The notes: generated by a model not told the origin, from the letters alone. A stretch of 64,000 bases of DNA from an uncultured Dehalococcoidia bacterium (GCA_964492335.1 CAZBJX010000006.1:1963-65962), one strand, 5' to 3'; counted from the first letter of the stretch, positions 13,851-52,859 are shown. Made by a program: numbers and translations.

Positions 13851-13859
13851 CACCGTTTC

Positions 13860-18678: not shown

Positions 18679-18717
18679 AGGTGCCTTCCTCTTGCCAGAT
18701 TCGGATGCGCGGGGGGA

Positions 18718-20589: not shown

Positions 20590-20996
20590 GGTCACACCGG
20601 TATCGGAGCTGGCCGCGGTGCCGGCCTTCCGGCAAGTGCCGTTGTACGGCGCTATCCTCGATCTCCGCTTCCCGCCAACGCGGGCCAGGGACCGGGCCAC
20701 TGCTCCAACTGATGCTCCCATAGGTACCCCCGAGATCGAAATCCCCGCCTTCCAGGGCGAGTGTAGGACATCCCCACCCCGTAGTGAATCCGCTGGAATG
20801 GCGAAGCCGGCTTCTACCAAATCGCAGACAAGGCGGCGCTGCCGCGCCGGGGGCCGGCGCCAAGGCGCCGAACCCTGGCGTACTTCATCCGGGCAGACAG
20901 CAGGAAGTTGACATGCGGGCCACCGCTGATTACTATCGGCATTTGGCAGGCCAGGCAATCGGATTATCCCTCTGGCGGACCAAGGAAGGGGATGAT

Positions 20997-25060: not shown

Positions 25061-25205
25061 CGGACACGCGCCTCTCTGCTACCATGGGGGGCGCAGGTGC
25101 GGAGTATCGTCCCGTAGAGTAAGACGCGCATGCACCATATGCACGGGTATAAGTGACGCGAACCGGTGACAGCCCGGCCGAAATAATGCGACGGAGGGAC
25201 GGCAG

Positions 25206-26825: not shown

Positions 26826-26892
26826 GCGCCGGGGGCAGAGTGAACGATGCAGGCGCGCCAGAGCGCGCCGGTGAAACGGGAGGGCACCAGCT

Positions 26893-30699: not shown

Positions 30700-30802
30700 G
30701 GTCAATCTCCCTTCAGCTTTCTCTGTCGCTTGCCCTTGGTAACCGTCAGCCGCCTTGCGGCGGCGGCCCATCCCGTATCCGGCATCCCCCGTCTCCGCCT
30801 CA

Positions 30803-32824: not shown

Positions 32825-32834
32825 GGCTTGCTCC

Positions 32835-33638
32835 TCAGTCGTGGTCCACCACGTAGTTGCGCAATGTGCCGATCTTCTCGATCTTGATCTCGACGACATC
32901 GCCGGGCCTCATCGGGCCGATGCCGGACGGCGTTCCGGTGGCGATGACGTCCCCCGGCAGCAGGGTCATGATGCAGGATACGAAGCTGACGATCTGGTCC
33001 ACGCCGAAGATGAGGTCGCTGGTGCGCGCCGACTGGCGCAGTTCCCCATTGACGAAGGACTCCACGGCCAGGTCTTCGGGATCGGCCTCGATCTCGATCC
33101 ACGGGCCTATCGGCGCGAAGGTGTCGTGCCCCTTGGCCCTGGTCCACTGCCCATCTGACTTCTGAGAGTACCGCTCCGACACGTCGTTGAAGCAGGTGTA
33201 TCCCAGGACGTATCGCCTGGCCTGTTCCCGCGTGACCCCCCGGGCCTGCCGGCCGATGACCACGGCCAGCTCCGCCTCGTAGTCCACCCGGCGCCGGTCC
33301 TGCCGGGGCAGGACGATCCGGTCCTCCGGCCCGATGACCGCCGTGGGGGGCTTGAGGAAGAGGAGCGGAACAGCAGGAATAGGCAGGCCCGTTTCGATGG
33401 CGTGGCTGCGGTAGTTGACCCCCAGGCAGACGATCTTGGAAGGGGTGCAGGGGGCCAGCAGCTTCACCTCGTCCAGGCGGTGCTCCCGGCCGTCGAGCTG
33501 GTACTGCAACCCGTGCTGGCGGCGGGATGAAAACGGGCTGTTTTGGAAGGCCCAGACATGGTCGCCATCGATCATCCCGTACCGCGGCCGGCCGCCGCTC
33601 CTGAAGCGTACGATGCGCAAGCTCACCTCCCTGGCCAA
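32835..33638 (-). CDS. Fumarylacetoacetate hydrolase (FAH) family protein (2-keto-4-pentenoate hydratase / HpcE-like)
   Basis: CLGVNYRSHAIE, the metal-binding E/D pattern, GDVIATGTPSGIG near the C-terminus. Confidence 0.8.
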   Translation of the reverse strand: MAREVSLRIVRFRSGGRPRYGMIDGDHVWAFQNSPFSSRRQHGLQYQLDGREHRLDEVKLLAPCTPSKIVCLGVNYRSHAIETGLPIPAVPLLFLKPPTAVIGPEDRIVLPRQDRRRVDYEAELAVVIGRQARGVTREQARRYVLGYTCFNDVSERYSQKSDGQWTRAKGHDTFAPIGPWIEIEADPEDLAVESFVNGELRQSARTSDLIFGVDQIVSFVSCIMTLLPGDVIATGTPSGIGPMRPGDVVEIKIEKIGTLRNYVVDHD

Positions 33639-33773: not shown

Positions 33774-34760
33774 GTGACAAAAGAGCCATCTGTATCCAAG
33801 CGCATTGATCTCAGTGACCTGGACCTGCGGCTCATCAGGCTGCTGGAGTCCGACTCGCGGAGCACCCAGTCGGGGCTGGCGGCCAAGCTGGGCATCAGCC
33901 GCCCCACGGTGGGCGCCGTCATGCAGAAGCTGACGGAGGCCCGGGTGATACGGCCGGTGTGCCTGGCAGACCACGTGGCCCTGGGGTACACGGACAGCGT
34001 GGTCTTCGGCATCAACACCATGCCGGGGAAGATGCTCAAGGTGGCCGGGGCCCTGGCATCCATGGCCCCCGTTCACTGGGTCGCCGTCTGCGCCGGGCCC
34101 TTCGACATCATGGCCTGGGGCCTCTTCAAGGGGAGGGGCGAGGTGCTGGAGTTCCTGACAGGCGAGCTGGGCAGGGTGCGGGGCATGTCGCGGTTCGAGA
34201 CGGTGATGTGCCAGGAGGTCAAGATATCCCCGGCGCTCCTCTCCGCGGACGAGGGCTACCGGCCGGGCGGGAGGCAGGTCCCGCTGGACCGGCTGGACGT
34301 GGCCCTCATCGGCACGCTGCAGCGGGACAGCCAGCAGACCGCCGCCGACCTGGCCCTGAAGCTGCGCACCAGCAAGCCCACCATCCTGCGCCGGATGAAG
34401 CGGCTCCATGACGAGGGCGTCATCAGGCTGGTGACCATGGTCGATCCCCGGGCCCTGGGATACAGCCTGGTGGTCTCCTCGGGCCTCAAGGTGGCCCCCG
34501 ACAGGATCGACGAGGTGGTGGAGGCGGTGGGGAACCACCGCAGCGTGCACAGTGTGGCGCTGTGCACCGGGCGGTACGACGTGCTGGCCTGGATGATCTT
34601 CCGGGACCGGCCGGAGATGATGGACGTGCTGAGCGGCCAGCTGGGCAAGATCCATGGCATCAGGAGCATGGAGACCGTCACCTGTCTGAAGATAGTGAAG
34701 GCTTCGTTCATGTACGTGAACTGGCAAGGGGATCTCTGGGAGAGTCTGAAGGAGGAGTGA
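33774..34760 (+). CDS. Tandem (duplicated) Lrp/AsnC-family transcriptional regulator, paralog 2 (GTG start)
   Basis: Two AsnC-type halves (DLRLIRLLESDSRSTQSGLAAKLGISRPTVGAVMQKL...; DVALIGTLQRDSQQTAADLALKLRTSKPTILRRMKRL...). Confidence 0.8.
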   Translation: MTKEPSVSKRIDLSDLDLRLIRLLESDSRSTQSGLAAKLGISRPTVGAVMQKLTEARVIRPVCLADHVALGYTDSVVFGINTMPGKMLKVAGALASMAPVHWVAVCAGPFDIMAWGLFKGRGEVLEFLTGELGRVRGMSRFETVMCQEVKISPALLSADEGYRPGGRQVPLDRLDVALIGTLQRDSQQTAADLALKLRTSKPTILRRMKRLHDEGVIRLVTMVDPRALGYSLVVSSGLKVAPDRIDEVVEAVGNHRSVHSVALCTGRYDVLAWMIFRDRPEMMDVLSGQLGKIHGIRSMETVTCLKIVKASFMYVNWQGDLWESLKEE

Positions 34761-34768
34761 GCAGGCCA

Positions 34769-36691
34769 ATGAACTATGATCGTCTGTTTGAGCCCGGCAA
34801 GATCGGGAAGATGGACCTGAAGAACCGGATAGTGATGCCCGCCATGGGCGTCTCCCTGTCAGACGCCAGGGGGTCGGCCACTGACAGGGAGATCGCCTAC
34901 TATGCGGCCAGGGCCAGGGGAGGGGCGGCCCTCATCACGCCGCACTACGCCTCGGTCAGCGCCGATTCCTCGCTGCCGTACACCATCGTCATCAGCGACG
35001 ACGGGCAGGTGAAGCACTGGAAGGCCCTGGCCGATGCCGTCCATGCGGCCGGGTCCAAGCTGTCGGTGCAGCTGATGCACATCGGCATGATCTACCTGTA
35101 CTCGGGGTTCGTTCCTGAAGGCATGGCCATCAAGGTGCCCAGCACCACCCTGTGGCTGAAGAGCACCTACAGCTACCACGTGCTCAACGAAAAGGAGATC
35201 GAGGGGTACATCGAGGACTTCGGCCAGGCCGCCCGGCGGGCCAGGGAGGCCGGGGCTGACGCCGTCGAGCTGCATGCCTGCCACGGCTGCCTGGTCAGCA
35301 CCTTCATGTCCCCCCTGACCAACAAGCGGACGGACCAGTGGGGTGGGAGCGTGGAGAACCGGGCCCGGTTCGCCCGCCGGATACTGGAGCGCATGAGGGA
35401 GGTGGTGGGGCCGGAGTTCCCCATCATCGTGCGCATGAATGCCAGTGATGATATCGAAGGCGGCGTCAGCATAGAGGAGGCCATGGAGCAGGCCTCCATC
35501 ATGGAGAAGGCCGGCGCGGATGCCATCAGCGTGTCCTCCGGCATGGAGTTCTGGACGCCCCAGGGGATCCCGGCCTACCCCTTCCCGGAGGGGGCCATGG
35601 TCCCGCTGGCGGAGAAGATCAAGCAGGCGGTCAAGGTCCCGGTCATCGCCGCGGGCAAGATCACCCCCGAGGTGGCCGTCAGGGTCCTGGAGGAAGGCCA
35701 GGCCGATTTCGTAGCCCTGGGGCGGCCCCTGCTGGCGGACTCCGACCTGCCGAACAAGATCCGCGAAGGGCGCCGGGAGGACGTGCGGAACTGTCTCTAC
35801 TGCAACAACTGCCTGCGGATGGAGACGGGCACTCCGTCCTGCACCGTCAACCCCTTCCTCTTCCGGGAGTCCCGGTATCCGCTGAAGCCGGCGGAGAAGG
35901 CGAAGAAGGTCATGGTTGTCGGGGGAGGCCTGGCCGGGATGGAGACGGCCGTGCTCCTGGCCGAGCGGGGCCACAAGGCGACCATCTACGAGATGACCGG
36001 CGAGCTGGGCGGCCAGTGGAACGTGGCCTGCGCCTCGCCGGGGAAGGGCAGCTACCGGCACCTCACCGACTACCTGAACAAGCAGATAGCCCGGCTGAAG
36101 ATACCGGTGGAGCTCCACCAGCAGGTCACCCGCGACACGGTGATCAAGGCGGCGCCGGACACCGTGGTCCTGGCCACCGGCGCGGTGCCCATCGGCCTGA
36201 GAGTGCCGGGGGCTGACAAGAAGCATGTCATCCAGGGGCATGACGTCCTGGCGGGCAAGGTCGGCGTCCAGGGCCGGTCCGTGGTGGTCGGTGGCCGCTT
36301 CATCGGCATGGAGGTGGCCATCAAGCTGGCCGAAGAGGGCCAGCCGGTCTCCATCATCACCCGCGGGGGGCTGGGGGAGAACGGAGTGAAGCTGGAGAAG
36401 TTCACCTTCCAGTCCATCGCCAACAGGCTTATCGAGCTGGGGGTGCCCCTCTATCTGAACGCCACCGTGGTGGAGATCAACGACAAGTCGGTGATCATAA
36501 TGATGAACGGCGAGATATACCCGGTGCCGGCCGACACGGTGATCTTCTCCGTGGGCATGCGGTCGGTGGCCGGCCTGGCCAGGGAGCTGGAGGGGACCGG
36601 CATCGAGTATCACCTGGTGGGGGACTGCGTCAAGCCCAGGGATGCCTGCGAGGTCCACACCCAGGCGGCCAAGATCGCCGCGCTGATCTAG
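34769..36691 (+). CDS. Two-domain NADH:flavin oxidoreductase (OYE-like + FAD/NAD-binding), paralog 3; start ATG 34769 (MNYDRLFEPGKIGKM)
   Basis: HACHGCLVSTFMSP, NCLYCNNCL Cys cluster, VVGGGLAGMETAV Rossmann. GGAGGAG SD is embedded in the last codons of the upstream Lrp gene. The track ORF start at 34562 is an over-extension overlapping the Lrp gene. Confidence 0.85.
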   Translation: MNYDRLFEPGKIGKMDLKNRIVMPAMGVSLSDARGSATDREIAYYAARARGGAALITPHYASVSADSSLPYTIVISDDGQVKHWKALADAVHAAGSKLSVQLMHIGMIYLYSGFVPEGMAIKVPSTTLWLKSTYSYHVLNEKEIEGYIEDFGQAARRAREAGADAVELHACHGCLVSTFMSPLTNKRTDQWGGSVENRARFARRILERMREVVGPEFPIIVRMNASDDIEGGVSIEEAMEQASIMEKAGADAISVSSGMEFWTPQGIPAYPFPEGAMVPLAEKIKQAVKVPVIAAGKITPEVAVRVLEEGQADFVALGRPLLADSDLPNKIREGRREDVRNCLYCNNCLRMETGTPSCTVNPFLFRESRYPLKPAEKAKKVMVVGGGLAGMETAVLLAERGHKATIYEMTGELGGQWNVACASPGKGSYRHLTDYLNKQIARLKIPVELHQQVTRDTVIKAAPDTVVLATGAVPIGLRVPGADKKHVIQGHDVLAGKVGVQGRSVVVGGRFIGMEVAIKLAEEGQPVSIITRGGLGENGVKLEKFTFQSIANRLIELGVPLYLNATVVEINDKSVIIMMNGEIYPVPADTVIFSVGMRSVAGLARELEGTGIEYHLVGDCVKPRDACEVHTQAAKIAALI

Positions 36692-41718: not shown

Positions 41719-42597
41719 TCAGGCCAGGCCCTTCTTCTCAAAGTACATGGCATACGCAGCGACGAACATCTCCGACCCCGCCGGGCCGAACTCCAGGCCG
41801 AAGCGGCGCCGGGCATCGGCGGCGAAGCGCTGTGCGATCTCGGAATGGGAGCCGCCCCTCCGGAGGCCATCGAGGACCATCGCGGAGCAGAGACGGGTAT
41901 TCTCCACCGCCCTCGAGAAGGCGGATTCGATTTCGGTGTCCGCGCCTCCATGGGAGCAGAAGAGCACCCGCGGATGGAGCCGGCGCAGCGTCTCGATGGT
42001 CGACAGGTAGTCCTCTTCGTCGAAGCTGTAGGGGGCCACGCTGGGCAGCAGGTGCGGCGGCACGCCCAGGGCTTCACCGCAGAAGAGGCCCTGCTGACTT
42101 CTGTCCAGGATGGCCAGGTGGTGCGAGGCATGCCCCGGCGCGTGGATGAACTGCAGCTCCCGGCCTCCGAGGGTGACGGCCTCACCGTCCGCAACGCCCC
42201 TCAGGCGGGACTCGGGAACGGGGAGCACCGTTCCCGAACGTTTCTCGAAGTCGCTGCCGTAGATCCTCCCGGTGACCTCGATGAGGCGGGCTGGGTGGGC
42301 CAGGTGCCTGACCCCGACCGGATGCACCAGCACCATGGCGGTCGGGTAGAGCGCCGCCAGCGCCCCCGTGCCGCCGGCGTGGTCCACATGGACATGGGTA
42401 AGGATGATATAGCCCAGGCGGCCCAGGCCGAGGTGCTCCAGGGCCTGTCTCACGAATGGGAGGGCGGCGGCCGGGCCCGGCTCGATCAGTGCGCCATCGC
42501 CATCTGCCACGAAGTACGAGACCGCCGGCACCAGCTCATCGGCCAGCGGGGCTTCCAGCCTGTAGGTCCTGTCTCCCACCTCGGTCAAGCCATCCAT
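41719..42597 (-). CDS. MBL-fold metallo-hydrolase
   Basis: THVHVDHAGG (HxHxDH) motif. Start chosen at MDGLTEV so it does not overlap the upstream Lrp gene. Confidence 0.75.
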   Translation of the reverse strand: MDGLTEVGDRTYRLEAPLADELVPAVSYFVADGDGALIEPGPAAALPFVRQALEHLGLGRLGYIILTHVHVDHAGGTGALAALYPTAMVLVHPVGVRHLAHPARLIEVTGRIYGSDFEKRSGTVLPVPESRLRGVADGEAVTLGGRELQFIHAPGHASHHLAILDRSQQGLFCGEALGVPPHLLPSVAPYSFDEEDYLSTIETLRRLHPRVLFCSHGGADTEIESAFSRAVENTRLCSAMVLDGLRRGGSHSEIAQRFAADARRRFGLEFGPAGSEMFVAAYAMYFEKKGLA

Positions 42598-42607
42598 CAA
42601 ATCCCCT

Positions 42608-43576
42608 TCACTTCCTGCCATCCCCGGCGGGCGGCTGCGCCCCGAAGCCCCAGTCGGCCCCGAGGTTGTCCTTGGTCACCTTCATCAGCACCATCACCTC
42701 ATGGCTGACCACCCCGGGCACCGTGCCGAGGTACTCCCTGACGAACCTGGACAGGTCCTCCCGGGTCTTGAGGAAGATGGTGAAGAGCAGATCGAAGGAC
42801 CCGGTGGTAATGACCACGTGGTGCGTCTCCGGCGATGCGGAGAGGGTGGCGGCGGCCTGGTCGATCATGCCCGGCCGCATGCTGAGGCCGATGTTGGCCC
42901 TGATGGTGTAGCCCAGGCGGACCGGGTCGGCCACGGCGATGACCTGCAGGACCTGGTCCTCGATCAGGCGCTCGATCCGCCGCCGGGCCGTGGCCTTGCT
43001 GCACCCGGCGGGGCCGGCCAGGCTGGTGTAGGCGCTGCGGGGGCTGGCGCGGAGCTGCCGCAGCAGGCGGTAGTCCAGCTCGTCGAGCCGCCGCCGGGGA
43101 GGCCTGCCCCCGCCGGCGGATATGCTCCTGTTGGCCAGCATGGAGAGAGAGAACTTGGCCACCTTGAGGCTGACCATGGTCTCGGCCCTGGTGATGTCCT
43201 TGATGGGCGCCAGGCTGGAGCTGACGAAATCCCACAGGTCCACCGTCTCCGGCAGGGACACCGAGGCGAAGATGTCGTAGCGCCCGGTGTGCATGGACAC
43301 GTGGTACACCTCGCGGATGTCCGCCAGCCGGCGGGCCACGGAATCGATCCGGCTGGGCGGCGCATTGATGGCCACCAGCAGCTGCCGGGTGTGGCCGATG
43401 GCCAGCGGGTCGACCAGCGTCAGGAAGCGGATGACCCTGTGCCGCTCCAGCCGCTCGAGCCGGTCGGCGATGGTGGACCAGCTCAGCCGCAGGTTGCCCG
43501 CCAGATCGGTGACGCTCTGCCGCCCGTCCCGCTCCAGCTCGGCGATGAGGCGCAGGTCAAGCTCGTCCAGTAGCAC
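42608..43576 (-). CDS. Tandem (duplicated) Lrp/AsnC-family transcriptional regulator, paralog 3
   Basis: Two AsnC-type halves (LDLRLIAELERDGRQSVTDLAGNLRLSWSTIADRLERL...; DYRLLRQLRASPRSAYTSLAGPAGCSKATARRRIERL...). Confidence 0.8.
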   Translation of the reverse strand: MLLDELDLRLIAELERDGRQSVTDLAGNLRLSWSTIADRLERLERHRVIRFLTLVDPLAIGHTRQLLVAINAPPSRIDSVARRLADIREVYHVSMHTGRYDIFASVSLPETVDLWDFVSSSLAPIKDITRAETMVSLKVAKFSLSMLANRSISAGGGRPPRRRLDELDYRLLRQLRASPRSAYTSLAGPAGCSKATARRRIERLIEDQVLQVIAVADPVRLGYTIRANIGLSMRPGMIDQAAATLSASPETHHVVITTGSFDLLFTIFLKTREDLSRFVREYLGTVPGVVSHEVMVLMKVTKDNLGADWGFGAQPPAGDGRK

Positions 43577-43653
43577 AGGCTGCCACCTTGATGATCTCTT
43601 TCACGCCGATAAGGGATGTCAATGACATAGTTCTGGTTTCTTCTAGCATATTG

Positions 43654-43683
43654 TTGACACGATTGTCAACCGCACGGTAGAAT
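43654..43683 (+). promoter_or_regulatory. Strong sigma70-type promoter for the VOC-GRE operon (-35 TTGACA 43654-43659, 18-nt spacer, -10 TAGAAT 43678-43683). A perfect inverted repeat TTGACA-CGAT-TGTCAA overlaps the -35 (candidate Lrp operator). A second TGTCA-A-TGACA inverted repeat lies ~40 nt upstream
   Basis: Hexamers, spacing and palindromes read directly. ATG 43708 is preceded by GGGGAGG. Confidence 0.5.
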
Positions 43684-43707
43684 GGGCGAAAAAGGCGGGG
43701 AGGTCGC

Positions 43708-44262
43708 ATGCCAACGCAGATTCCGCACCTGGTCAAGGTGAACGAGCTCTTCCAGACGGGCATCGTGGTGCGCGATGTGGAGAAGGGGATCCGGGAGTAC
43801 GGCCGCCTGTTCGGGACAGCCCCTGACGAGTGGTGGGTGGTCACCATAGACGACAGCCTGTGCCGGCTGACCTATCGGGGACGGCCCTCAAGCCACAGCT
43901 TCAAGGCGGCCATGGTCATGGTGGGGGACCTCATGATAGAGCTCCTGCAGCCGCTGGAGGGGATGGGCACCTACCGCGAGTTCCTGGAGCAGCGGGGGGA
44001 GGGGGTCCATCACCTGGGCCACGTGATCGTTCCGGACCTGGAGGCGGTGATGGAGAAGATGGAGAAGGAGGGCTTTCCCGTCGTGGAGACCGGACAGCCC
44101 CGGGGCCCCGCGCAGGGAGGCGGCCACAAGTGGGCCTACATCGACACCTCTGCCGCGCTGGGGTACATCACGGAGTACTCCCAGGGGACCGACCCCAGGG
44201 TTTCCCTGCGGATGTACCACGAGTACCGGAAGAAGAAGGCGGAGGGCAAGTCAGGGCGTTGA
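43708..44262 (+). CDS. VOC (glyoxalase/bleomycin-resistance/extradiol dioxygenase) superfamily protein
   Basis: Two beta-alpha-beta-beta-beta modules with His/Glu positions (VHHLGHVI...) typical of VOC; 184 aa. Confidence 0.65.
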   Translation: MPTQIPHLVKVNELFQTGIVVRDVEKGIREYGRLFGTAPDEWWVVTIDDSLCRLTYRGRPSSHSFKAAMVMVGDLMIELLQPLEGMGTYREFLEQRGEGVHHLGHVIVPDLEAVMEKMEKEGFPVVETGQPRGPAQGGGHKWAYIDTSAALGYITEYSQGTDPRVSLRMYHEYRKKKAEGKSGR

Positions 44263-44295
44263 GGCGCGGCTTCATGCCAGGGAGGATAAACCGGG

Positions 44296-46737
44296 ATGGT
44301 CATGGAAGCCAGTGAAGCGAAGGCGGCCGGGGGCAGGCCCTGCCGGCCCAGCACTCCCCGGACCCGCAGGCTGAAGGAAGTCTACATGGGGCACAGGCCC
44401 GGCATCTGTGTCGAACGCAGCGTGCTGGTCACCGATTCCTACCGGAAGACGGAGGCCCTCCCGCCGGTGCTGCGGCAGGCCATGGCCTTCGACCGGGTGC
44501 TGTCGGAGATGCCCATCTGGGTCCAGGACGGCGAGCTTATCGCGGCCAACATCGCCTCGAGGCCCAGGGGGGCCTTTCTCTTCCCGGAATACGACGACAC
44601 CTGGCTGAAGAGGGAGCTGGACACCATCTCCACCAGGAAGGATGACCCCTGGCTTCTGAGCGATGAGGACAAGGCCCGGGTCAGGGGCTGCATGGACTAC
44701 TGGCGGGGCCGCAGCCTCTCCGCGGTGTGCGACGCGCTGACCGTGGACGAGGTGCGGCAGGCGGAGAGGAACTCCTTCATCGACATCCGCATGGGCAAGC
44801 AGGGCGGCATCGGGCACATCGTGCCCGATATCGAAACGGTCATAGAGCGGGGCCTGAACTCGTTGATAGAAGCGGCCGAGGACCATATCCGGCGCCTGGA
44901 CCTGGCCAACCCCGAGGGATTCGCCAGGCTGCCCTTCCTGCGGGCGGTGGTGATAGCGGACAGGGCGGTGATCAAGTGGGCCGGGCGGTTCGCCGCGCTG
45001 GCCAGGGAGAGGGCGGCGGCGGAGCCGGACCCCGGGAGGAAGCGGGAGCTCGAGCAGATGGCCGAGGCCTGCGAGCGGGTGCCGGCCCATCCGGCCCGCA
45101 GCTTCCACGAGGCCCTGCAGGCGGTGGCCCTCATCATGGCCTCGGTCCAGATAGAGACCAACGGGGTCTCCATCGGGACGGGACGGCTGGACCAGTACTG
45201 CTTCCCACATTATGAGAGGGACATCAGGGCGGGGGCGATCACCCGGGAGCAGGCGCTGGAGCTGCTGGAGTGCCTGTGGCTCAAGCTGGCCGAATCGAAC
45301 CGGGTGGTGAGCGAGGGATTCACCCACACCCAGAGCGGCTATCCCTTCTGGATCCAGGTGCCGATAGGGGGGCAGACCGTGGACGGCTACGATGCCACCA
45401 ACGATCTGTCCTACCTCCTGTTGGAGGTGTCCAGCAACATGCAGCTCCACGAGCCCACGGTGTCGGCCAGGATACACAAGAGGACGCCGGACGTCTTCCT
45501 CATGAAATGCTGCGAGGCCATCAGGGCCCATGGGGGAGGCAACCCCGCCCTGTTCAACGACGAGGTCATCATCCCCAGCCAGCTGGCCTGGGTCCCCGGA
45601 ATCACCAAGGAGGACGCCTATGACTACTCGGTGATCGGCTGCTCCGAGATCGCCTTCGCCGGCAAGGGGACCGAGGGCATCGCCTACCACGCCATGAGCC
45701 TGGGCCGGGTCCTGGAGCTGATGCTCCAGGGGAAGGACCCGGTGACCGGGGCGCCGCTGGCGTCAGGCCCGGGCGGCATGCTGCAGTGGCGGACCTTCGA
45801 CGACATGATGGAGGCCTTCACTGAGAAGGTGCGGGCCCTCTCCCGGGCCATGTTCCTGCAGCAACTGCCGCTGATCGAGGCCCACGTGGCCCACCGGCCC
45901 TGCCCGCTCCTCTCCTCCCTGACCAGGGACTGCATCAGCCGGGGCCGCAGCTACTATGACGGCGGGGCCCTGTACGGGAACCGCGCGGCCAACGCGTGCA
46001 TCGTCGGCCTGGCCACCCTGGCCAACTCGCTGGCGGCGGTCAGGAGGCTGGTCTTCGACGACCGGGCCATCACCATGGACCAGCTGAAGCATGCCCTGGA
46101 GACCAACTTCGAGGATACGGCCACCAGCCCCACGGGCCCGGCCATCCGCCAGATGTGCCTGCGCGCCCCGAAGTACGGCAACGACGACCCATACGTGGAC
46201 CGCCTGGCCAAGGACAGCCTGAACATCGTGGTGAGGGAGATGCGCAGGCACCAGACCCGGCCGGGCCAGGGCTACGGGGCCACCATCTCCCCGGTGACGG
46301 CCCACATGAGCTACGGGGCCATCTGCGGCGCCACGCCCGACGGGCGGAGGGCGGGGGAGCCCCTCAGCGACTCCTGCTCGCCGGCCCAGGGCACCGATGT
46401 CAACGGCCCGACGGCGGCCATCAAGTCGGTGGCCGGACTGGAGCACATGAACCTGGTGCAGGGGACGATCTTCAACATGAAGATGCACCCCGGGCCCCTG
46501 GAGACCCGGGCGGGAATGCGCAAGTGGGCGGACCTGGTCCGCACCTACTTCGACCTGGGGGGGTGGGAGGTCCAGTTCAACGTGGTCAGCTCAGACACCC
46601 TGAGGGAGGCGCAGCGGCGCCCCGAGGAGCACCGGGACCTGGTGGTCCGGGTGGTGGGCTACAGCGCCTTCTTCGTGGAGCTGGAGAAGGTGGTCCAGGA
46701 CGACATCATCGCCAGGACGGAGCACTGCGGGGCGTAG
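44296..46737 (+). CDS. Glycyl radical enzyme, PFL-like fold, eliminase class (Cys-x-Glu active loop), substrate unknown
   Basis: C-terminal glycine-radical motif RVVGYSAFF. Active-site loop VIGCSEIAF (Cys-x-Glu as in glycerol/propanediol dehydratase, CutC and HypD, not the Cys-Cys of PFL). N-terminal ICVERSVLVTDSYRKTE...IWVQDGELIAAN typical of GRE dehydratases/lyases. 813 aa. Confidence 0.9.
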   Translation: MVMEASEAKAAGGRPCRPSTPRTRRLKEVYMGHRPGICVERSVLVTDSYRKTEALPPVLRQAMAFDRVLSEMPIWVQDGELIAANIASRPRGAFLFPEYDDTWLKRELDTISTRKDDPWLLSDEDKARVRGCMDYWRGRSLSAVCDALTVDEVRQAERNSFIDIRMGKQGGIGHIVPDIETVIERGLNSLIEAAEDHIRRLDLANPEGFARLPFLRAVVIADRAVIKWAGRFAALARERAAAEPDPGRKRELEQMAEACERVPAHPARSFHEALQAVALIMASVQIETNGVSIGTGRLDQYCFPHYERDIRAGAITREQALELLECLWLKLAESNRVVSEGFTHTQSGYPFWIQVPIGGQTVDGYDATNDLSYLLLEVSSNMQLHEPTVSARIHKRTPDVFLMKCCEAIRAHGGGNPALFNDEVIIPSQLAWVPGITKEDAYDYSVIGCSEIAFAGKGTEGIAYHAMSLGRVLELMLQGKDPVTGAPLASGPGGMLQWRTFDDMMEAFTEKVRALSRAMFLQQLPLIEAHVAHRPCPLLSSLTRDCISRGRSYYDGGALYGNRAANACIVGLATLANSLAAVRRLVFDDRAITMDQLKHALETNFEDTATSPTGPAIRQMCLRAPKYGNDDPYVDRLAKDSLNIVVREMRRHQTRPGQGYGATISPVTAHMSYGAICGATPDGRRAGEPLSDSCSPAQGTDVNGPTAAIKSVAGLEHMNLVQGTIFNMKMHPGPLETRAGMRKWADLVRTYFDLGGWEVQFNVVSSDTLREAQRRPEEHRDLVVRVVGYSAFFVELEKVVQDDIIARTEHCGA

Positions 46738-46761
46738 CCGGTGGGCCACGGAGCGGGCACC

Positions 46762-47697
46762 ATGAGCGTGGCGATCTCCGGGCAGGTCTTCAACATCCAG
46801 CGCTACTCCATTCACGACGGCGCCGGGATCAGGACCCTGGTCTTCCTCAAGGGCTGCCCGCTGCGGTGCCTGTGGTGCTGCAACCCGGAGTCCCAGAAGG
46901 GCGGCCCGGAGCTGGGCTTCATCGCCTCCCGCTGCGTCGGGGACAGGGGGTGCGGGGCGCCCTGCGTCCCCGCCTGCCCCATCAGCGCCATCCGGCTGGG
47001 CCCGGAGGGCCGGCCGGAGATCGACCGGGCGGCCTGCGACGCCTGCGGCCGGTGCGCCGCGGCCTGCGGCCCAGAGGCGCTCAGGGTGGTCGGCCGGGAG
47101 ATGACCGTCGCCGGGGTGATGGCGGAGGTGGAGAAGGACCGCCCCTTCTACCGGCGGTCCGGCGGGGGTATGACGGTGGGGGGCGGCGAGCCTCTGGCGC
47201 AGCACCGCTTCGCCGCGGCGCTGCTGGAGGCGGCCCGGGACGCCTACCTGCACACGGCGCTGGAGACCTGCGGCCACGGCCCGTGGGCCCATCTTGAAGG
47301 GCTGCTCAGGCATGTCGACCTGCTGCAGTTCGATATCAAGCACATGGACGCCGCCAGGCACCGGGAGCTGACCGGGCAGTCCAACGACCTGGTGCTGGCC
47401 AACCTCAAGAGGGTGCCGGCCGTGAAGCCCCCCGGAGAGGTGATCATCAGGGTCCCGGTGGTCCCGGGGTGCAATGACTCGGCGGACAACGTGCGGGAGA
47501 CGGCGGCGCTGGTGGCCGGGCTGGGCTTCCGGCAGGTGGAGCTGGTGCCCTACCACCGGCTGGGGGCCCCCAAGTACGTCCAGTACGGCATCCCGGACCC
47601 GCTGCCGGACTGCCCTTCAGCCTCTGGGGGCCGCCTGGAGGAGCTCAGGAGGATTGTAGAAGAGGCCGGCCTGACGGAGACAGGCGGGACCATCTGA
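46762..47697 (+). CDS. Glycyl-radical enzyme activating protein (radical SAM, with additional 2x[4Fe-4S] ferredoxin-type inserts)
   Basis: CPLRCLWCCNPE (CxxxCxxC radical SAM). Ferredoxin Cys blocks CVGDRGCGAPCVPACP and CDACGRCAAACGP. Typical of activases for eliminase-class GREs. Confidence 0.9.
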   Translation: MSVAISGQVFNIQRYSIHDGAGIRTLVFLKGCPLRCLWCCNPESQKGGPELGFIASRCVGDRGCGAPCVPACPISAIRLGPEGRPEIDRAACDACGRCAAACGPEALRVVGREMTVAGVMAEVEKDRPFYRRSGGGMTVGGGEPLAQHRFAAALLEAARDAYLHTALETCGHGPWAHLEGLLRHVDLLQFDIKHMDAARHRELTGQSNDLVLANLKRVPAVKPPGEVIIRVPVVPGCNDSADNVRETAALVAGLGFRQVELVPYHRLGAPKYVQYGIPDPLPDCPSASGGRLEELRRIVEEAGLTETGGTI

Positions 47698-47726
47698 CGG
47701 CCGTCAGCGGGCAAAGGAGCGAAGGA

Positions 47727-48665
47727 ATGCGCGGCGTGTTCTTCAGGGACGGTGAAGTGGAGCTGAGGGAGATCGAGGAGCCTTCCGGCGAAGGGGCCCG
47801 GGTCCGGGTGCGGTCCATCGGCATCTGCGGCTCGGACCTGCACATGCTGGAGGCGAGGTCTCCCCTGGAGTTCGTGGCCGGCCATGAGGTGGCCGGGGTG
47901 CTGGACGACGGGACCCCGGTGGCGGTGGAGCCCTCCATGCCCTGCGGGGAATGCCCCCTCTGCCGGTCGGGCGACTACAACCTCTGCCCCTCGGGGGCGG
48001 GGAAGTCGCTGGGCATCGGCCGGAACGGGGGGATGGCCGACGTGGTCCGGGTGCCTCCGGGCTGCCTGGCATATCTCCCATCGAACGTGGACGTGCGCGA
48101 CGCATGCCTCGTCGAGCCGCTGGCGGTGGCGGTGCACGGCCTGCAGCGCGCGGGGCTGGAGGGCGGCCAGCGGGTGGCGGTGATCGGGGGAGGCGCCATC
48201 GGCCTCTGCGCGGTGGCGGCGGCCAGGGCCGCCAGTGCCGCCACCGTGGGGCTCGCGGCCCGCTACGAGCACCAGGTGGCCGCGGGGCGGTCCCTGGGGG
48301 CTGAGGCCATCGACGGGCGGTACGACCTGGTCGTCGAGTGCGCCGGGACCGAGAAGGCGGTGAACACCGCGGTCAGGCTGTGCCGGCCGAAGGGCAGGGT
48401 CCTGGTCCTGGGGACGCACTGGAGCGGGCTGCCCTTGCCCCAGGTGCTGGTGATGATGAAGGAGGTGACGGTCGTCTCCTCTTTCATGTATGCCGTCAGC
48501 GGCGCGGTGCGCGACTTCGACGTGGCGGCGATGCTTCTCTCCAGGCAGCCCGCCATAGCCAGGGCCCTGATCACCCACCGGTTTCCCCTGGCGCAGGCCG
48601 GGCAGGCCTTCGCGGCGGCCCGGGACCGCAAGGCGGGTGCCATCAAGGTGGTGCTGGAGCCGTAG
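47727..48665 (+). CDS. Zn-dependent alcohol dehydrogenase (MDR superfamily)
   Basis: GICGSDLH and GHEVAGVL zinc motifs, structural Zn Cys cluster CGECPLCRSGDYNLC, GGGAIGL Rossmann. Confidence 0.85.
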   Translation: MRGVFFRDGEVELREIEEPSGEGARVRVRSIGICGSDLHMLEARSPLEFVAGHEVAGVLDDGTPVAVEPSMPCGECPLCRSGDYNLCPSGAGKSLGIGRNGGMADVVRVPPGCLAYLPSNVDVRDACLVEPLAVAVHGLQRAGLEGGQRVAVIGGGAIGLCAVAAARAASAATVGLAARYEHQVAAGRSLGAEAIDGRYDLVVECAGTEKAVNTAVRLCRPKGRVLVLGTHWSGLPLPQVLVMMKEVTVVSSFMYAVSGAVRDFDVAAMLLSRQPAIARALITHRFPLAQAGQAFAAARDRKAGAIKVVLEP

Positions 48666-48744: not shown

Positions 48745-49452
48745 ATGGAGGGAGCGATGGACCGGCAGATCACCGAGGACGAACTGATCAGCAACGACGG
48801 CCAGGACGGGCGCCCGGCATGGGTGGCCTACCGGGGGAAGGTGTACGACGTCTCCGCCAGCCGGCTGTGGCGGGGGGGCGCCCACATGAAGCGCCACCAG
48901 GCGGGGAAGGACCTCACGGCGGAGTTCGGGGCAGCCCCTCACGACGAGGTTGTTCTGCAGGACATGCCCGTGGTGGGCAGGCTGGCGGCCGCGGAGAAGA
49001 AGGGCCTGCCGCCGCTGGTGCAGATCTATCTGGACCAGCACCCGCACCCCGTCTCGGTCCACTTCCCCATCGCCCTGACGCTGGCCTCGGCGGCTTTCCT
49101 GGCCGCCCACCTGGTCACCCGGGCCGGTGGCCTGGCGGATGGCGCGTACTACCTGCTTCTGGGGGTGGCCGTGATAGCCCCGCTGTCCGCGCTGGCCGGG
49201 GTGTCCAGCTGGTGGTTCAACTACGGGCACCGGCGGACGGGGACGTTCGTGGGCAAGGCCGTCCTCTCGGCGGCTCTCTTCGTGACGGGGGTAGTGACGG
49301 CGGTCGTGTGGTCCCTCCAGCGCCAGGCGGTGGTGGACCGGGAGGCGGTGGCCTGGGTCTGCCTGGCGCTGCTGCTGGTGATGTCCGTGCTGGTGCTGTC
49401 ACTGGGGCACCTGGGCGGGTCCCTGGTGTTCCCGCCGCGGAAGAAGCCCTGA
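48745..49452 (+). CDS. Cytochrome b5-like heme/steroid-binding domain fused to a 4-TM membrane domain
   Basis: YRGKVYDVSASRLWRGGAHMKRHQAGKDLTAEFGAAPHDE aligns with the cyt b5 core (YDVTKFLEEHPGGEEVL...AG.DATE.F...H). It is followed by four hydrophobic helices. Confidence 0.55.
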   Translation: MEGAMDRQITEDELISNDGQDGRPAWVAYRGKVYDVSASRLWRGGAHMKRHQAGKDLTAEFGAAPHDEVVLQDMPVVGRLAAAEKKGLPPLVQIYLDQHPHPVSVHFPIALTLASAAFLAAHLVTRAGGLADGAYYLLLGVAVIAPLSALAGVSSWWFNYGHRRTGTFVGKAVLSAALFVTGVVTAVVWSLQRQAVVDREAVAWVCLALLLVMSVLVLSLGHLGGSLVFPPRKKP

Positions 49453-50589: not shown

Positions 50590-51816
50590 TCATTTCAAGT
50601 TCAGGCGGAAGAGAGGCTCGAACGAGCTGAACAGGTCCAGGTACTGCTCCAGGTAGCGGGACAGCAGGAAGTTCTGGCGGACCTTCTCCCTGGCGCGGCG
50701 CCCCATGGCGTCGCGCAGCCCCCTGTCCTTGACCAGTTGAACGATCCTCAGGGCCGCCTCTTCCACGGAAGAGACCAGGAAGCCGTTGACCTCGTCGTCG
50801 ATCTGGAAGCGGATGCCCCCCGCATTGCCCCCGATGACCGGGGTGCCCTTCCACATGGCTTCGGACACCGTCAGCCCGAACCCCTCGCGCAGCGATTTCT
50901 GCAGCACCACGGCTGCCTTCCGCTGGAGCGCGTTCACCAGGTAGCTGTCCTGGATGCTGTGTATTATGATCCGCTCCTCCCGGCTCTCCAGTAGGGAGTC
51001 GTAGACCTCTTCACCCTCCGGGTCGTCGGAGGCCACGTTTCCCACCAGGACCAGGGTGCAGTCGACCTCCCTGCGGGCGATCTTGAACGCCTCGATGACC
51101 CCCTTCGGGTCCTTCCAGGTGTCGAAGCGCGAGATCTGCACCACCAGCGGCAGGTCGGTGGGGATGCCGTAGTGGCGGAGCCGCTCGTCTATCTCCGCTT
51201 CGGTGAGGTCCCTGTTGATAATGGAGAAGGGGTCAATCGCCGGTACGAAGACCACCTGCGGAGGCCCGATTTCCTGAACATAGTCCGGGCTGCTCACGAT
51301 GACCGCGTCGTACTGCTCGATGAAGCGGACCAGGTACTCCCAGAGCTCCGGGTTGGGGTGGGTCAGGTCTATGTGGCAGCGCCAGACCCAGGGCACTCGC
51401 TTCCGGTAGTGCTCAATCAAGGGCAGGGGCTGGGGGTCGTGAACGATGATGATGTCATGGTTGTTCAGGTGGTTGCGGATGGAGTTCTCGAAGACCACCT
51501 CCTCGTACAGCTCCATCTTGCGCTGGCTGAGGTTGATCTCTCCGCCCTGGAGGGCATTGTGCATCTTCTTGGTCACCGTGAAGAAGTCCGGGGGGCCGTG
51601 GATGGCCCGCCACCCGACCCTTATCCCCAGGCTGTTCATCAGGAGGGTCATGGAAGACAGCAGCTGGGCCACGCCGCCGCCATAATAGGTGGAGTTGATG
51701 TTGGTGATGTGGAAGTCGTGCAGCGGCCTGGCCTTGCGGATGATGCGCTCCACGCTCTCGGCCCCGATCAGGGGCTCGTAGTCTTCGATGGTAGTGGTCC
51801 GGAAAGCTCTCGTCAT
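50590..51816 (-). CDS. treT: Trehalose synthase TreT (NDP-glucose:glucose glycosyltransferase, GT4); start trimmed to MTRAFRTTTIEDYEPLIG (ATG 51814-51816)
   Basis: Characteristic TreT N-terminus (...EDYEPLIGAESVERIIRKARPL...HITNINSTYYGGGVAQLLSSM...FFTVTKKMHNALQG). GT4 C-terminal EGFGLTVSEAMWKGTPVIGG. GGAAGGAG SD. Confidence 0.8.
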   Translation of the reverse strand: MTRAFRTTTIEDYEPLIGAESVERIIRKARPLHDFHITNINSTYYGGGVAQLLSSMTLLMNSLGIRVGWRAIHGPPDFFTVTKKMHNALQGGEINLSQRKMELYEEVVFENSIRNHLNNHDIIIVHDPQPLPLIEHYRKRVPWVWRCHIDLTHPNPELWEYLVRFIEQYDAVIVSSPDYVQEIGPPQVVFVPAIDPFSIINRDLTEAEIDERLRHYGIPTDLPLVVQISRFDTWKDPKGVIEAFKIARREVDCTLVLVGNVASDDPEGEEVYDSLLESREERIIIHSIQDSYLVNALQRKAAVVLQKSLREGFGLTVSEAMWKGTPVIGGNAGGIRFQIDDEVNGFLVSSVEEAALRIVQLVKDRGLRDAMGRRAREKVRQNFLLSRYLEQYLDLFSSFEPLFRLNLK

Positions 51817-51857
51817 CGTGCTTCGGTCTCCTTCCATTGGCCCATCCCCGCCCCGGC

Positions 51858-52859
51858 TCATCCGGGCAGGCCCCGCATGAAGCGCGCCGTTTCCTCGGGC
51901 AGCGCGCTGTTGATGAACATCCCGGAGCCGATCTCGAACCCGGCGACCTCGGTGGTCCGGGGCACTATCTTCACGTGCCACTGGTAGAAGTCGGCGCGCT
52001 CTTCTCCCACCGGGGCGCTGTCAATGACCAGGTTGAAATCGGGGTCGTCGAGGCCGCGGTACAGCTTCTGCAGGGTGGTCCGCAGCACCCGCGCCAGGTG
52101 CTCGATGTCCTCCGCCGTGGCCTGGCTGAAGCTGGCCTGGCCGGCCTTCGGCACTATCCAGGTCTCGAAGGGCCGGTGGGAGGCGAAGGGGTGGAAGACA
52201 ACGCATCCGGGGGTGTCCATCACCACCCTGGTCCCGGCTGCCAGCTCGCGCGCGGCCAGGTCGGCGCAAAGGCAACGGCCGTGGTCGTCGTAGTAGCTGA
52301 CGGCCACCGCGAGTTTGTTCCTGATATGCCCGGGGACGACGGCCGTGGCCACCAGCTGCGAGTGCGGATGCTCCAGCGAGGTGCCGGCCGCGGGGCCGTG
52401 GTTCTTGAAGATAATGATGGACTTGATGGCGGGGGCCCGGGTCAGGGCCTGATATCTCTGCTGCCATGCCTGCAGAACGGCCCTCACCTCCTCCTCTTCC
52501 ATCCCGGCCAGGTGCCTGTTGTGCACCGGCGTCTCCACGATCACCTCGTGAATCCCCGTGCCCGCCATGCTCAGGAAGAGCCCGCCGTCGATCTTCCGGG
52601 AGGTATCGCCGCCGGGGCTGACCGCAGGGTACTTGTTGGGGATGACCTTGACCTTCCAGGGGCCGCCCGCGGGTCCCGCAATGGTCAGGGATGCCGGGGG
52701 CGTCAGGCCCTCGTTGCCGGGGCAGAACGGGCACGAGCTGACGAAGGCGGGCTTCTCGGACCGCGGCGCCCTGCGGGCATGCTCTGAAGGCCGCTTTCCC
52801 CTTTCTGCGGCCATGATCACCCATTCTTTGGTTGTGGGGTCCTGTCTCATCTCCGACAT
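51858..52859 (-). CDS. galT: Galactose-1-phosphate uridylyltransferase (GalT, HIT superfamily)
   Basis: Zn motif SSCPFCPGNE and HIT-like EHPHSQL (HxHxQ). 333 aa. SD GAAGGA. Confidence 0.8.
   Translation of the reverse strand: MSEMRQDPTTKEWVIMAAERGKRPSEHARRAPRSEKPAFVSSCPFCPGNEGLTPPASLTIAGPAGGPWKVKVIPNKYPAVSPGGDTSRKIDGGLFLSMAGTGIHEVIVETPVHNRHLAGMEEEEVRAVLQAWQQRYQALTRAPAIKSIIIFKNHGPAAGTSLEHPHSQLVATAVVPGHIRNKLAVAVSYYDDHGRCLCADLAARELAAGTRVVMDTPGCVVFHPFASHRPFETWIVPKAGQASFSQATAEDIEHLARVLRTTLQKLYRGLDDPDFNLVIDSAPVGEERADFYQWHVKIVPRTTEVAGFEIGSGMFINSALPEETARFMRGLPG

Follow-up and report, generated by a model that had tools for sequence, protein, structure and literature searches.

We analysed a 64,000-nucleotide stretch of DNA from an uncultured Dehalococcoidia bacterium (the window, below), in which an operon of four genes encodes a VOC-fold protein, a glycyl radical enzyme (GRE), a GRE-activating radical S-adenosylmethionine (SAM) enzyme and a Zn-dependent dehydrogenase. 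The GRE is an oxygen-sensitive radical enzyme that most resembles the B12-independent diol dehydratases. Judged by its sequence it belongs to no characterised family, and we hold, with about even confidence, that it represents a new family of C-O-cleaving radical 1,2-eliminases, acting on a hydroxylated substrate either as a dehydratase or as a beta-hydroxy-ether or ring C-O lyase. The operon consists of the following genes.

43708-44262, plus strand: VOC protein, 184 amino acids (Pfam Glyoxalase_4, PF13669, E 3.6e-17)
44296-46737, plus strand: GRE, 813 amino acids (Pfam PFL-like and Gly_radical)
46741-47697, plus strand: GRE-activating radical SAM enzyme (activase), 318 amino acids (TIGR02494, 332 bits, cutoff 174)
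47727-48665, plus strand: Zn-dependent dehydrogenase of the medium-chain dehydrogenase/reductase (MDR) superfamily, 312 amino acids (Pfam ADH_N, ADH_zinc_N and Glu_dehyd_C)

Successive genes are separated by 33, 3 and 29 bp, and all four open reading frames (ORFs) show a strong third-position GC bias in a window with a G+C content of 67%. A first-pass annotation of this DNA had predicted a VOC protein, a GRE with both catalytic motifs, an activase with extra clusters and a Zn-dependent alcohol dehydrogenase (Zn-ADH); the four ORFs were found exactly where it had placed them, the motifs and Pfam matches bear out each description, and the feature is real, with its main interpretation having survived testing.

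A glycyl radical enzyme outside the characterised families

Residues of the GRE were mapped using HMMER and MAFFT alignments, with conservation assessed over 120 family sequences and 22 outgroup representatives serving as the contrast set. Two motifs define the predicted radical site.

45631-45657, plus strand: Cys loop VIGCSEIAF, residues 446-454, with the predicted thiyl-radical Cys449 and general-base Glu451
46648-46674, plus strand: glycyl radical motif RVVGYSAFF, residues 785-793, with Gly788

The Pfam Gly_radical domain matched residues 691-794 (E 5.6e-29), and the glycyl radical motif is invariant in 119 of the 120 family sequences. Cys449 is present in 120/120 and Ser450 in 110/120, and position 451 is occupied by Glu in 98 and Asp in 22 of the sequences. 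With the radical motif, the Cys loop, the barrel fold and an adjacent activase all present, the protein is placed in the GRE superfamily, and radical formation is predicted.

The only NCBIfam cutoff passed by the GRE was that of the generic model TIGR01774 (PFL2/glycerol-dehydratase subfamily), at 691 against 678 bits. Scores against the models of individual families were as follows.

HpsG (NF048011): 597 bits, cutoff 1000
CutC (TIGR04394): 562 bits, cutoff 1050
HypD (NF043068): 525 bits, cutoff 1100
PflD (PRK09983): 523 bits, cutoff 1109
HpfG: 495 bits, cutoff 1000
Indoleacetate decarboxylase (IAD): 464 bits, cutoff 1100
Hydroxyphenylacetate decarboxylase (HPAD): 349 bits, cutoff 1150
Pyruvate formate-lyase (PFL, TIGR01255): 121 bits, cutoff 994

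Every GRE of solved structure scored at or below 590 bits against the operon GRE. Glycerol dehydratase (GD) and 1,2-propanediol dehydratase (PD) reached 579 and 552 bits, compared with more than 1170 bits inside the GRE's own family, to which >120 metagenomic proteins belong (1171-1849 bits, 63-98% identity). In MAFFT alignments the GRE was equidistant from GD (37.6% identity), PD (37.9%), the PD of structure 9rco (37.7%), YbiW (36.8%) and PflD (37.3%). Because pattern-based locus scans could have created an artificial gap around the family, an exhaustive phmmer search was run against 1.84 billion representatives clustered at 50% identity. The best representative (P0106) showed 64% identity and 1223 bits, the next 45% identity and 752 bits, and those after it 44%, 42% and lower, which leaves a gap of ~470 bits. 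The ten nearest outgroup representatives all stay below the equivalog cutoffs too, and the outgroup clusters P0121 and P0122 lie in unrelated neighbourhoods (GRE paralogues with an FGGY kinase, and a transketolase with an aminotransferase, respectively). These scores assign the GRE to a separate 50%-identity cluster. The identities of 37-38%, the failure to reach any equivalog cutoff and the drop from 1223 to 752 bits agree with the first-pass description of a GRE of unassigned specificity; tight clustering with a characterised family, the pre-set counter-test of that description, was not seen, so it stands.

A June 2026 review names GD, PD, HpfG, HypD, HpyG, HpzG, CutC, IslA/IseG and HpsG as the known eliminases and HplG, YbiW and PflD as the known GRE isomerases, and states that whole GRE clades are still without validated function (PMC13450708). 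No family matching the operon GRE is among those that it covers (PMC13450708), and we found no literature describing a GRE clustered with VOC and ADH genes, a GRE in Dehalococcoidia or an ether-cleaving GRE.

We modelled the GRE with AlphaFold2 (AF2), and the model was of high quality (pLDDT 91.7, pTM 0.92). Its best Foldseek matches were GD (1r8w) and PD (9rco and 5i2g), with TM scores of 0.93-0.96 and a root-mean-square deviation of 1.8-2.0 Å. The catalytic residues and part of the pocket could be equated with those of the dehydratases.

Cys449: GD C433
Glu451: GD E435
His174: GD H164 and PD H166
Ser292: GD S282
Val667: PD V696
Segment K168 to H174, encoded at 44797-44817, plus strand: family-specific K168, and H174 at the beta1 'common site'

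The beta1 'common site' of GRE eliminases is occupied by H160 in HypD, Asp216 in CutC and Gln193 in IslA (PMC8473560). In the family described here it is His in 119/120 sequences, and this residue aligns with the His found in all five C-O-cleaving comparators (GD, PD, 9rco, YbiW and PflD). The remainder of the pocket has been remodelled. Of the positions that bind substrate in GD and PD (N156, H281, S282, D447, Y640 and S642/V696), only S282, as S292, and the PD-type Val, as V667, are kept. N156 of GD is replaced by M166 (109/120), H281 by V291, Y339 by W352 (119/120), Y640 by Ser or Ala at 665, N645 by H670 (120/120), and D447 by Y464 following a one-residue insertion past the Cys loop. K168, which takes the place of GD Y158, is present in 118/120 family sequences; at this position the 22 outgroup representatives include one basic residue (an Arg) and no Lys. 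Position 346 is His, Gln or Leu. The family-specific pocket residues thus hardly vary among family members and are seldom or never found in the outgroup representatives. The pocket combines basic or polar residues (K168, H/Q346, H/Q465 and H670) with hydrophobic ones (M166, V291, F351, W352 and V667), and this mixture suggests an amphipathic, possibly anionic, hydroxy compound as the substrate.

Reaction class and alternative explanations

The first-pass annotation had assigned the GRE to the eliminases, in part on the strength of its Cys-x-Glu motif, with C-O, C-N or C-S bonds as possible targets. Eliminase is indeed the class best supported, since the nearest folds are GD and PD and the beta1 His is common to all C-O-cleaving GREs compared. 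The motif argument did not hold up on its own: Cys-x-Glu is also found in GRE decarboxylases and isomerases (PMC13450708), and is consequently not diagnostic of eliminases alone. The choice of bond could be narrowed towards C-O, as a His at the beta1 position favours an oxygen leaving group (OH or OR).

We propose the following mechanism. The activase, with one radical-SAM and two auxiliary clusters, would put a radical on Gly788, from where it would move to Cys449. The Cys449 thiyl radical would take a hydrogen atom off a carbinol carbon whose hydroxyl would be deprotonated by Glu451, and His174 would protonate the oxygen leaving group on the neighbouring carbon, which would then depart. The alpha-carbonyl radical would regain hydrogen from Cys449 to yield a carbonyl compound. 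The Zn-dehydrogenase would interconvert ketone and secondary alcohol. Its target would be the product, or else the substrate, which it would prepare or stereo-invert; it may act before the GRE instead of after it. The VOC protein, which in relatives is joined or replaced by an EthD-fold protein, would isomerise or epimerise by proton transfer beside the carbonyl. Expression would start from a near-consensus promoter, with a tandem Lrp/AsnC protein exerting control through an inverted repeat over the -35 element. The reaction class and the roles of H174, K168, the dehydrogenase and the VOC protein are those we infer from the alignments, the model and the gene context.

Several observations weigh against this proposal. 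The wider occurrence of Cys-x-Glu is one of them, and the general-base position is Asp in 18% of the family. CutC, HpzG and YbiW follow closely behind GD and PD in the Foldseek ranking, with small margins. Since the binding positions N156, H281, D447 and Y640 of GD/PD are replaced (by Met, Val, Tyr with an insertion, and Ser or Ala), the analogy with diol dehydratases may fail in detail. AF2 places residues 165-169 in a short helix of lower confidence, and the orientation of K168 towards the pocket is for that reason an assumption. Lastly, all relatives come from metagenome-assembled genomes (MAGs) or metagenomes. We nevertheless rank the C-O-cleaving eliminase above each of the four alternatives considered, namely an isomerase, a C-N or C-S lyase, a divergent GD or PD, and a decarboxylase.

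The GRE may be an isomerase similar to YbiW/PflD or HplG, in which a radical at a carbinol carbon sets off intramolecular cleavage of a ring C-O (or C-N) bond, giving a keto isomer that is then reduced by the Zn-dehydrogenase. Strictly, such an isomerase would be one form of C-O cleavage and is inseparable from it by sequence; we consider it unlikely, if the most credible of the four. The catalytic needs are the same, Cys-x-Glu and the beta1 His being kept in YbiW and PflD, and identity to these two enzymes (36.8% and 37.3%) equals that to the dehydratases. A ketone product would suit a polyol-type ADH, one relative carries a sugar- or cyclitol-type Gfo/Idh/MocA dehydrogenase between GRE and activase, and AP_endonuc_2 genes resembling sugar isomerases occur in two loci. 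However, the expected context of phosphotransferase system (PTS), kinase, aldolase and sugar-phosphatase genes does not recur, with only one locus (L087; loci are numbered with the prefix L) containing phosphofructokinase and class-II aldolase genes further downstream. The score against PRK09983 is 523 bits where the cutoff is 1109, and Foldseek ranks GD and PD slightly higher.

Less probable still is a C-N or C-S lyase akin to CutC or IslA/HpsG, through which a beta-hydroxy amine or sulfonate (an osmolyte, for instance) would lose its amine or sulfite. HpsG (597 bits) and HpsH (344 bits), sulfopropanediol enzymes of the Desulfovibrio type, are the best equivalogs of GRE and activase respectively, the hosts are sediment and marine organisms, the regulator is an Lrp protein of the amino-acid type, Liv-type binding proteins occur in ~6 loci, and the conserved Lys and several His residues could bind an anion. 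Yet the scores lie far below the cutoffs (HpsG 597/1000, CutC 562/1050), the leaving-group site has the His typical of C-O cleavage, and neither sulfite reductase nor trimethylamine-handling genes were seen nearby. The residues expected of such enzymes are also replaced, the Arg/Gln/Arg sulfonate triad by G170, H174 and S665, and Asp216 and Tyr208 of CutC by H174 and M166.

We attach a slightly lower probability, and thus a small one, to the GRE being a glycerol or 1,2-propanediol dehydratase with its known substrate in a distant lineage. The closest folds are those of GD and PD, and the His, Ser, Glu and PD-like Val are conserved. Set against this, identity is only 37-38%, a gap of 470 bits separates the family from all other GRE clusters, and N156, H281, D447 and Y640 have all been replaced by family-invariant alternatives. 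The partner ADH is of the secondary-alcohol type, and the window and the annotated relatives lack the CoA-acylating aldehyde dehydrogenase, Fe-dependent ADH and microcompartment shell.

A decarboxylase of the IAD or arylacetate decarboxylase type, acting on an aryl- or alkyl-acetate without a small subunit, is very improbable: Cys-x-Glu is found there too, the invariant K168 could bind a carboxylate, and some relatives lie near aromatic-acid-type binding proteins, corrinoid methyltransferases and a 4HBT thioesterase, but the IAD and HPAD models score lowest of the PFL2-type equivalogs (464 and 349 bits), decarboxylase structures rank lowest of the PFL2-type Protein Data Bank (PDB) sequence matches and are absent among the 50 Foldseek matches listed, and the tightly co-inherited dehydrogenase would have no role in decarboxylation.

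Within C-O cleavage, we also considered the more specific idea of a GRE reaction new to the literature, in which the leaving group is not water or the enzyme dehydroxylates an alicyclic or hydroaromatic polyol acid, and regard this as doubtful. Candidate substrates would be beta-hydroxy ethers (a lignin beta-aryl ether, an alkyl-glycerol ether or a glycol ether) and, as the polyol acid, a quinate- or shikimate-type compound. The Zn-ADH and the VOC or EthD protein would then form a stereochemical funnel, in which a carbinol is oxidised, its neighbour epimerised and the carbonyl reduced again, so that every stereoisomer could enter a single stereospecific radical enzyme. Weak hints in this direction are the His donor together with the remodelled pocket, the lack of aldehyde-handling genes, and the BaiCD-like ene-reductase, KstD-like, SnoaL/EthD, P450, corrinoid-methyltransferase and FadL/TodX neighbours in various relatives. 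If this is correct, sediment Chloroflexota would have a way, independent of oxygen, to tap recalcitrant carbon derived from plants or lipids.

Attempts to read the substrate of the GRE from accessory genes were abandoned. The extra genes point to alicyclic, steroid or terpenoid compounds, aromatic acids, and sugars or cyclitols alike, and several of them are multi-copy paralogues in these genomes as well (three old yellow enzyme (OYE)-like genes and three tandem Lrp genes in the window alone). Speculative candidates were threonine, aminopropanol, carnitine, sulfolactate, 2,3-butanediol/acetoin, quinate, ether lipids and lignin beta-O-4 compounds.

The conserved gene module and its candidate operator

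Relatives of the GRE at 62-86% identity were found at 30 genome loci, in MAGs of Dehalococcoidia and other Chloroflexota, Desulfobacterales/Desulfosarcina, Halieaceae, Aestuariirhabdus and other Gammaproteobacteria from sediment and marine settings. With ~45 more loci from metagenomes, the family comprises about 78 loci after removal of duplicates. Counting only loci with enough flanking DNA, the activase directly follows the GRE in 55/61, an orthologous Zn-dehydrogenase is present in 32/48, and a VOC gene of either of two paralogous types lies within 7 kb of the GRE in 19/30. The module is conserved across three phyla, and the identity of the dehydrogenase tracks that of the GRE (r = 0.86, n = 32 loci), which indicates that the genes are inherited as a unit.

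The activase carries the radical-SAM motif C39-x3-C43-x2-C46 (encoded at 46855-46878) and a two-cluster ferredoxin-like insert (46933-47067) with C65/71/75/79 and C99/102/105/109; Pfam Fer4 matched residues 70-110. Its best equivalog, HpsH, gave 344 bits where the cutoff is 430. The first-pass annotation had noted that hallmark partners of known GRE families are missing, and we agree. The activase scored 278 bits against a CutD cutoff of 360, no microcompartment shell homologue was found in the window (tblastn with PduA and EutN queries), and there is neither a small-subunit ORF between GRE and activase in the window nor room for one. In the window and the annotated related loci, no CoA-acylating aldehyde dehydrogenase, microcompartment gene or 1,3-propanediol-type Fe-ADH was seen. 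At some other loci, inserts of 200-500 bp separate GRE and activase (L006 10375-10875, L098 6313-6630, L121, L118 3109-3375 and L125 3026-3310). A small-subunit or GrcA-like ORF within them was rejected, as they lack coding bias; their translations resemble REP-like repeat elements.

The dehydrogenase has the catalytic Zn ligands C34 and H53/E54 and the structural ligands C73/76/79/87. Its best NCBIfam models are those of L-idonate 5-dehydrogenase, galactitol-1-phosphate 5-dehydrogenase, scyllo-inosose 3-dehydrogenase and threonine 3-dehydrogenase, all scoring far below cutoff, and its nearest solved structures are ketose reductase (1e3j), xylitol dehydrogenase (7y9p) and sorbitol dehydrogenase (1pl6). 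These matches assign it to the sorbitol-dehydrogenase/ketose-reductase/threonine-dehydrogenase branch of the MDR superfamily, which acts on secondary alcohols and ketones. As the enzyme is of the sorbitol-dehydrogenase type, a ketone is a likelier carbonyl partner than an aldehyde, and the earlier suggestion that the ADH reduces an aldehyde product is not supported in that form; in one GRE sub-family, moreover, the ADH is replaced by a short-chain dehydrogenase/reductase (SDR).

This sub-family (L002, L004, L018, L024, L025, L026 and L111) has Cys-Ser-Asp in place of Cys-Ser-Glu, I/A/S351 and usually M169. Its loci never contain the Zn-ADH and lack the VOC/Lrp context, and an SDR usually lies directly after the GRE or the activase. 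The substrate is probably different but related, and the non-orthologous replacement of the Zn-ADH by an SDR indicates that the dehydrogenase step is integral to the pathway. In L002 the GRE lies among corrinoid methyltransferase and RACo genes.

The VOC protein matched the methylmalonyl-CoA epimerase (MMCE) model TIGR03081 weakly (43 bits against a cutoff of 115) and is accordingly not an MMCE equivalog. Its nearest and only close solved structure is 3gm5, which is itself without known function. E78, H101/H102 and E156 are invariant in 36 co-located homologues, and the first metal ligand is possibly Gln16. By its sequence it falls in the MMCE/GlxI-like group and is probably a metal-dependent proton-transfer isomerase or epimerase, a role also suggested by its being sometimes paired with or replaced by an EthD-fold protein. 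Such a protein is encoded directly upstream of the GRE in 11/60 loci.

The region upstream of the operon contains the following elements.

43654-43683, plus strand: sigma-70-type promoter, TTGACA, 18-nt spacer and TAGAAT, 11/12 consensus positions
43653-43670: inverted repeat GTTGACA-cgat-TGTCAAC, perfect 7+7 bp arms, the left arm holding the -35 hexamer
43616-43632: conserved upstream box ATGACA(C/T)AGTT, overlapping a short inverted repeat (ATGTCA-a-TGACAT) in the window
43697-43703, plus strand: ribosome-binding site GGGGAGG, 4 nt 5' of the VOC start codon, kept in syntenic loci
42608-43576, minus strand: tandem (double) Lrp/AsnC-family regulator, with two stretches each of Pfam HTH_AsnC-type and AsnC_trans_reg

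The -35 hexamer TTGACA lies at 43654-43659 and the -10 hexamer TAGAAT at 43678-43683. This match to the sigma-70 consensus at 11 of 12 positions upholds the consensus promoter of the first reading; promoter-like sites of this kind numbered 2 in 5.6 kb, compared with 0.3 expected from shuffles. The 'overlapping perfect palindrome' reported with it does overlap the -35 element and has perfect 7-bp arms, but its 4-bp centre (cgat) is not palindromic. TTGACA-N4-TGTCAA occurs once in the window, with 0.04 occurrences expected, and this 16-bp repeat was found in 12 other loci of the 173 fetched (11 distinct, as L096 is the same contig as L007). It was always located in the intergenic region between the divergent Lrp gene and the operon, at the same place and spacing, far above chance, and heads the operon whether the first gene encodes a VOC protein or an OYE-type flavoenzyme. 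All 12 of these are loci of the GRE family and carry a tandem Lrp gene, whose product is 57-88% identical to that of the window.

In the 13 loci the flanks have diverged around an invariant -35 element and inverted repeat. At a fixed spacing, the -10 element reads TAGAAT in 10/13 loci and TACAAT, TAAATT or TAGATT in the rest. The seventh arm pair is G..C in the window and A..T in some relatives (for example L001, L005 and L007), so that pairing is preserved; it is non-complementary in several others. An invariant -35 element and repeat, a nearly invariant -10 element and fixed spacing within diverged flanks are, in comparative terms, good evidence that promoter and operator function. The (G)ATGA(C/T)A..(G)TT box, which lies ~39 bp away from the repeat at the -35 element, is retained in the aligned syntenic loci and is possibly a second regulator site. 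A tandem Lrp gene adjoins the GRE unit in 26/41 family loci with enough upstream DNA, and that at 42608-43576 is likely to encode the operon's regulator. The inverted repeat is a candidate operator, probably bound by this divergently encoded protein, a pairing that we infer from their shared occurrence.

The window holds three tandem Lrp/AsnC regulators, each adjoining a redox gene set (24047-27957, 33834-36691 and 42608-43576): a KstD-like FAD_binding_2 enzyme with a Fer4 protein, an OYE/Fe-S flavoenzyme, and the GRE operon. They look like an expanded regulator family paired with catabolic modules. Three paralogous Fe-S flavoenzymes with Oxidored_FMN and Pyr_redox_2 domains are encoded at 28579-30771 (minus strand), 30803-32899 (minus) and 34562-36691 (plus), the start call of the last probably running into the preceding Lrp gene; their in-operon homologue in L086 is BaiCD/FadH/bilirubin-reductase-like. 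A gene for a metallo-beta-lactamase (MBL)-fold hydrolase that weakly resembles GloB (44 bits) is located at 41719-42621 on the minus strand; in five syntenic loci it lies behind the Lrp gene. The hydrolase and the VOC protein bring to mind a glyoxalase I/II pair; the MBL gene is not conserved across the GRE family.

Downstream of the dehydrogenase lies one further gene on the same strand.

48745-49452, plus strand: cytochrome-b5-like domain fused to a DUF2231 membrane domain (Pfam Cyt-b5 and DUF2231)

It starts 79 bp past the dehydrogenase, and no terminator-like site was found between the two. It is possibly co-transcribed with the operon, its membership being uncertain. Among the relatives, only the close ones L007 and L127 have the same gene beyond the operon, following the ADH in L007 (12804-13511), and following the activase and one more gene in L127, where no ADH was detected. 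Cytochrome-b5-like domains bind haem or steroids.

Other companions of the GRE unit vary. A DUF3604 exported protein follows the ADH in 6/32 loci, BaiCD/FadH-like Fe-S ene-reductases occur in 9 loci (in-operon in L034, L086 and L011), SDRs in 12, Liv-type binding proteins (Peripla_BP_6) in ~6 and KstD-like flavoproteins in 4. Further companions are SnoaL_4, P450, amidase, corrinoid methyltransferases, thiolase/DUF35, Gfo/Idh/MocA and a FadL/TodX channel. In a Dehalococcoidia sub-group (L010, L091, L097, L101, L119 and L135) the ADH is followed by genes for a DUF3604 lipoprotein (673 amino acids, exported, with an HSHT-type metal motif) and an NmrA/HpnA-like NAD-binding protein. The DUF3604 protein may act outside the cell as a hydrolase that sets the substrate free; a literature search on DUF3604 function found nothing relevant. 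In a gammaproteobacterial MAG (L174), genes flanking the VOC, GRE, activase and ADH unit (516-3328 and 13465-14088) encode a FadL/TodX-type outer-membrane channel, a TetR regulator and an FAD enzyme of the Amino_oxidase type, and a Desulfobacterales MAG (L175) has the Gfo/Idh/MocA dehydrogenase between GRE and activase (11656-12768).

Elsewhere in the window, ~35 kb upstream of the operon, are genes for a tungsten-type aldehyde:ferredoxin oxidoreductase (6152-8254, minus strand), a SnoaL_4 protein (8344-8838) and an SDR (9017-9775), and the ORF at 10944-11726 is a second SDR by the look of its N-terminal motif. No other aldehyde-oxidising enzyme was seen in the window, and the oxidoreductase has no link to the operon. 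The region 12194-21018 is of lower GC content (61-63% vs 67%) and encodes a Liv-type ABC transporter (two ATPases, a permease and a Peripla_BP_6 protein) and a long AMP-binding ligase; an ORF at 13860-15917 shows weak coding bias. A trehalose-synthase-type glycosyltransferase ORF (50590-51981, minus strand) overlaps by ~120 bp a 333-residue ORF (51858-52859, minus strand) that looks like galactose-1-phosphate uridylyltransferase, and one of the two starts is probably wrong.

Significance and comparison with known systems

Characterised GREs have revealed distinctive anaerobic chemistry of ecological and medical weight. Examples are the formation of trimethylamine (CutC), the breakdown of hydroxyproline from collagen (HypD), reactions that supply sulfide production (IslA and HpsG) and an anhydro-sugar glycolysis opened by YbiW and PflD. 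The GRE described here is an orphan member of the known eliminase/isomerase class, not demonstrated new chemistry, and orphan GRE clades are not rare. Its clade is a tractable target because it is sharply delimited and has a compact partner set conserved across three phyla and a regulator with a defined, putative operator. Assigning its substrate would give a carbon-cycling step to organisms that so far resist cultivation, and might supply biocatalysis with a new radical dehydratase or lyase.

The closest likeness is to GD from C. butyricum (1r8w) and PD (5i2g and 9rco), with which the GRE shares the Gly and Cys loops, the Glu base, the beta1 His, the Ser and the PD-like Val, as well as an activase with a two-cluster ferredoxin insert. 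It differs from them in its operon partners, which are a VOC protein and a polyol-type Zn-ADH without aldehyde dehydrogenase, Fe-ADH or microcompartment, and in having M166, K168, V291, Y464 and S/A665 for N156, Y158, H281, D447 and Y640. YbiW and PflD, which act on anhydroglucitol- and anhydromannitol-6-phosphate, and HplG have in common with the proposed reaction Cys-x-Glu, the beta1 His and C-O cleavage beside a carbinol to give a ketone. The E. coli genes are, however, accompanied by PTS or sugar phosphatase and fructose-6-phosphate aldolase genes, not seen here, and the pocket residues differ.

HypD, HpyG and HpzG are C-O dehydratases with Cys-x-Glu and the beta1 His (H160 in HypD). Their substrates are anionic and are held in part by a basic beta1 residue (R156 in HypD), and K168 of the GRE might act alike. 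Unlike HypD, the GRE would have S292 for D278, G170 for R156 and A669 for T645, as estimated from an offset in numbering, and no pyrroline-5-carboxylate reductase gene lies nearby. HpsG/HpfG and IslA/IseG provide the best equivalog models for both GRE and activase, and W352 corresponds to W374 of IslA; the Arg/Gln/Arg sulfonate triad is nevertheless missing, and PDB sequence scores are lower than those of GD and PD. A long CutC (9f3w) is the top phmmer match in the PDB (590 bits summed over three stretches), with a TM score of ~0.93, but Asp216, Tyr208 and Thr334 of CutC are replaced by His174, Met166 and Val291, and neither a microcompartment nor CutF/CutO-type partners are present. The GRE is set apart from HPAD by the lack of an adjoining small ORF, and from pyruvate formate-lyase by its score (121 vs 994 bits) and by a single Cys (G448-C449) in place of the Cys-Cys pair.

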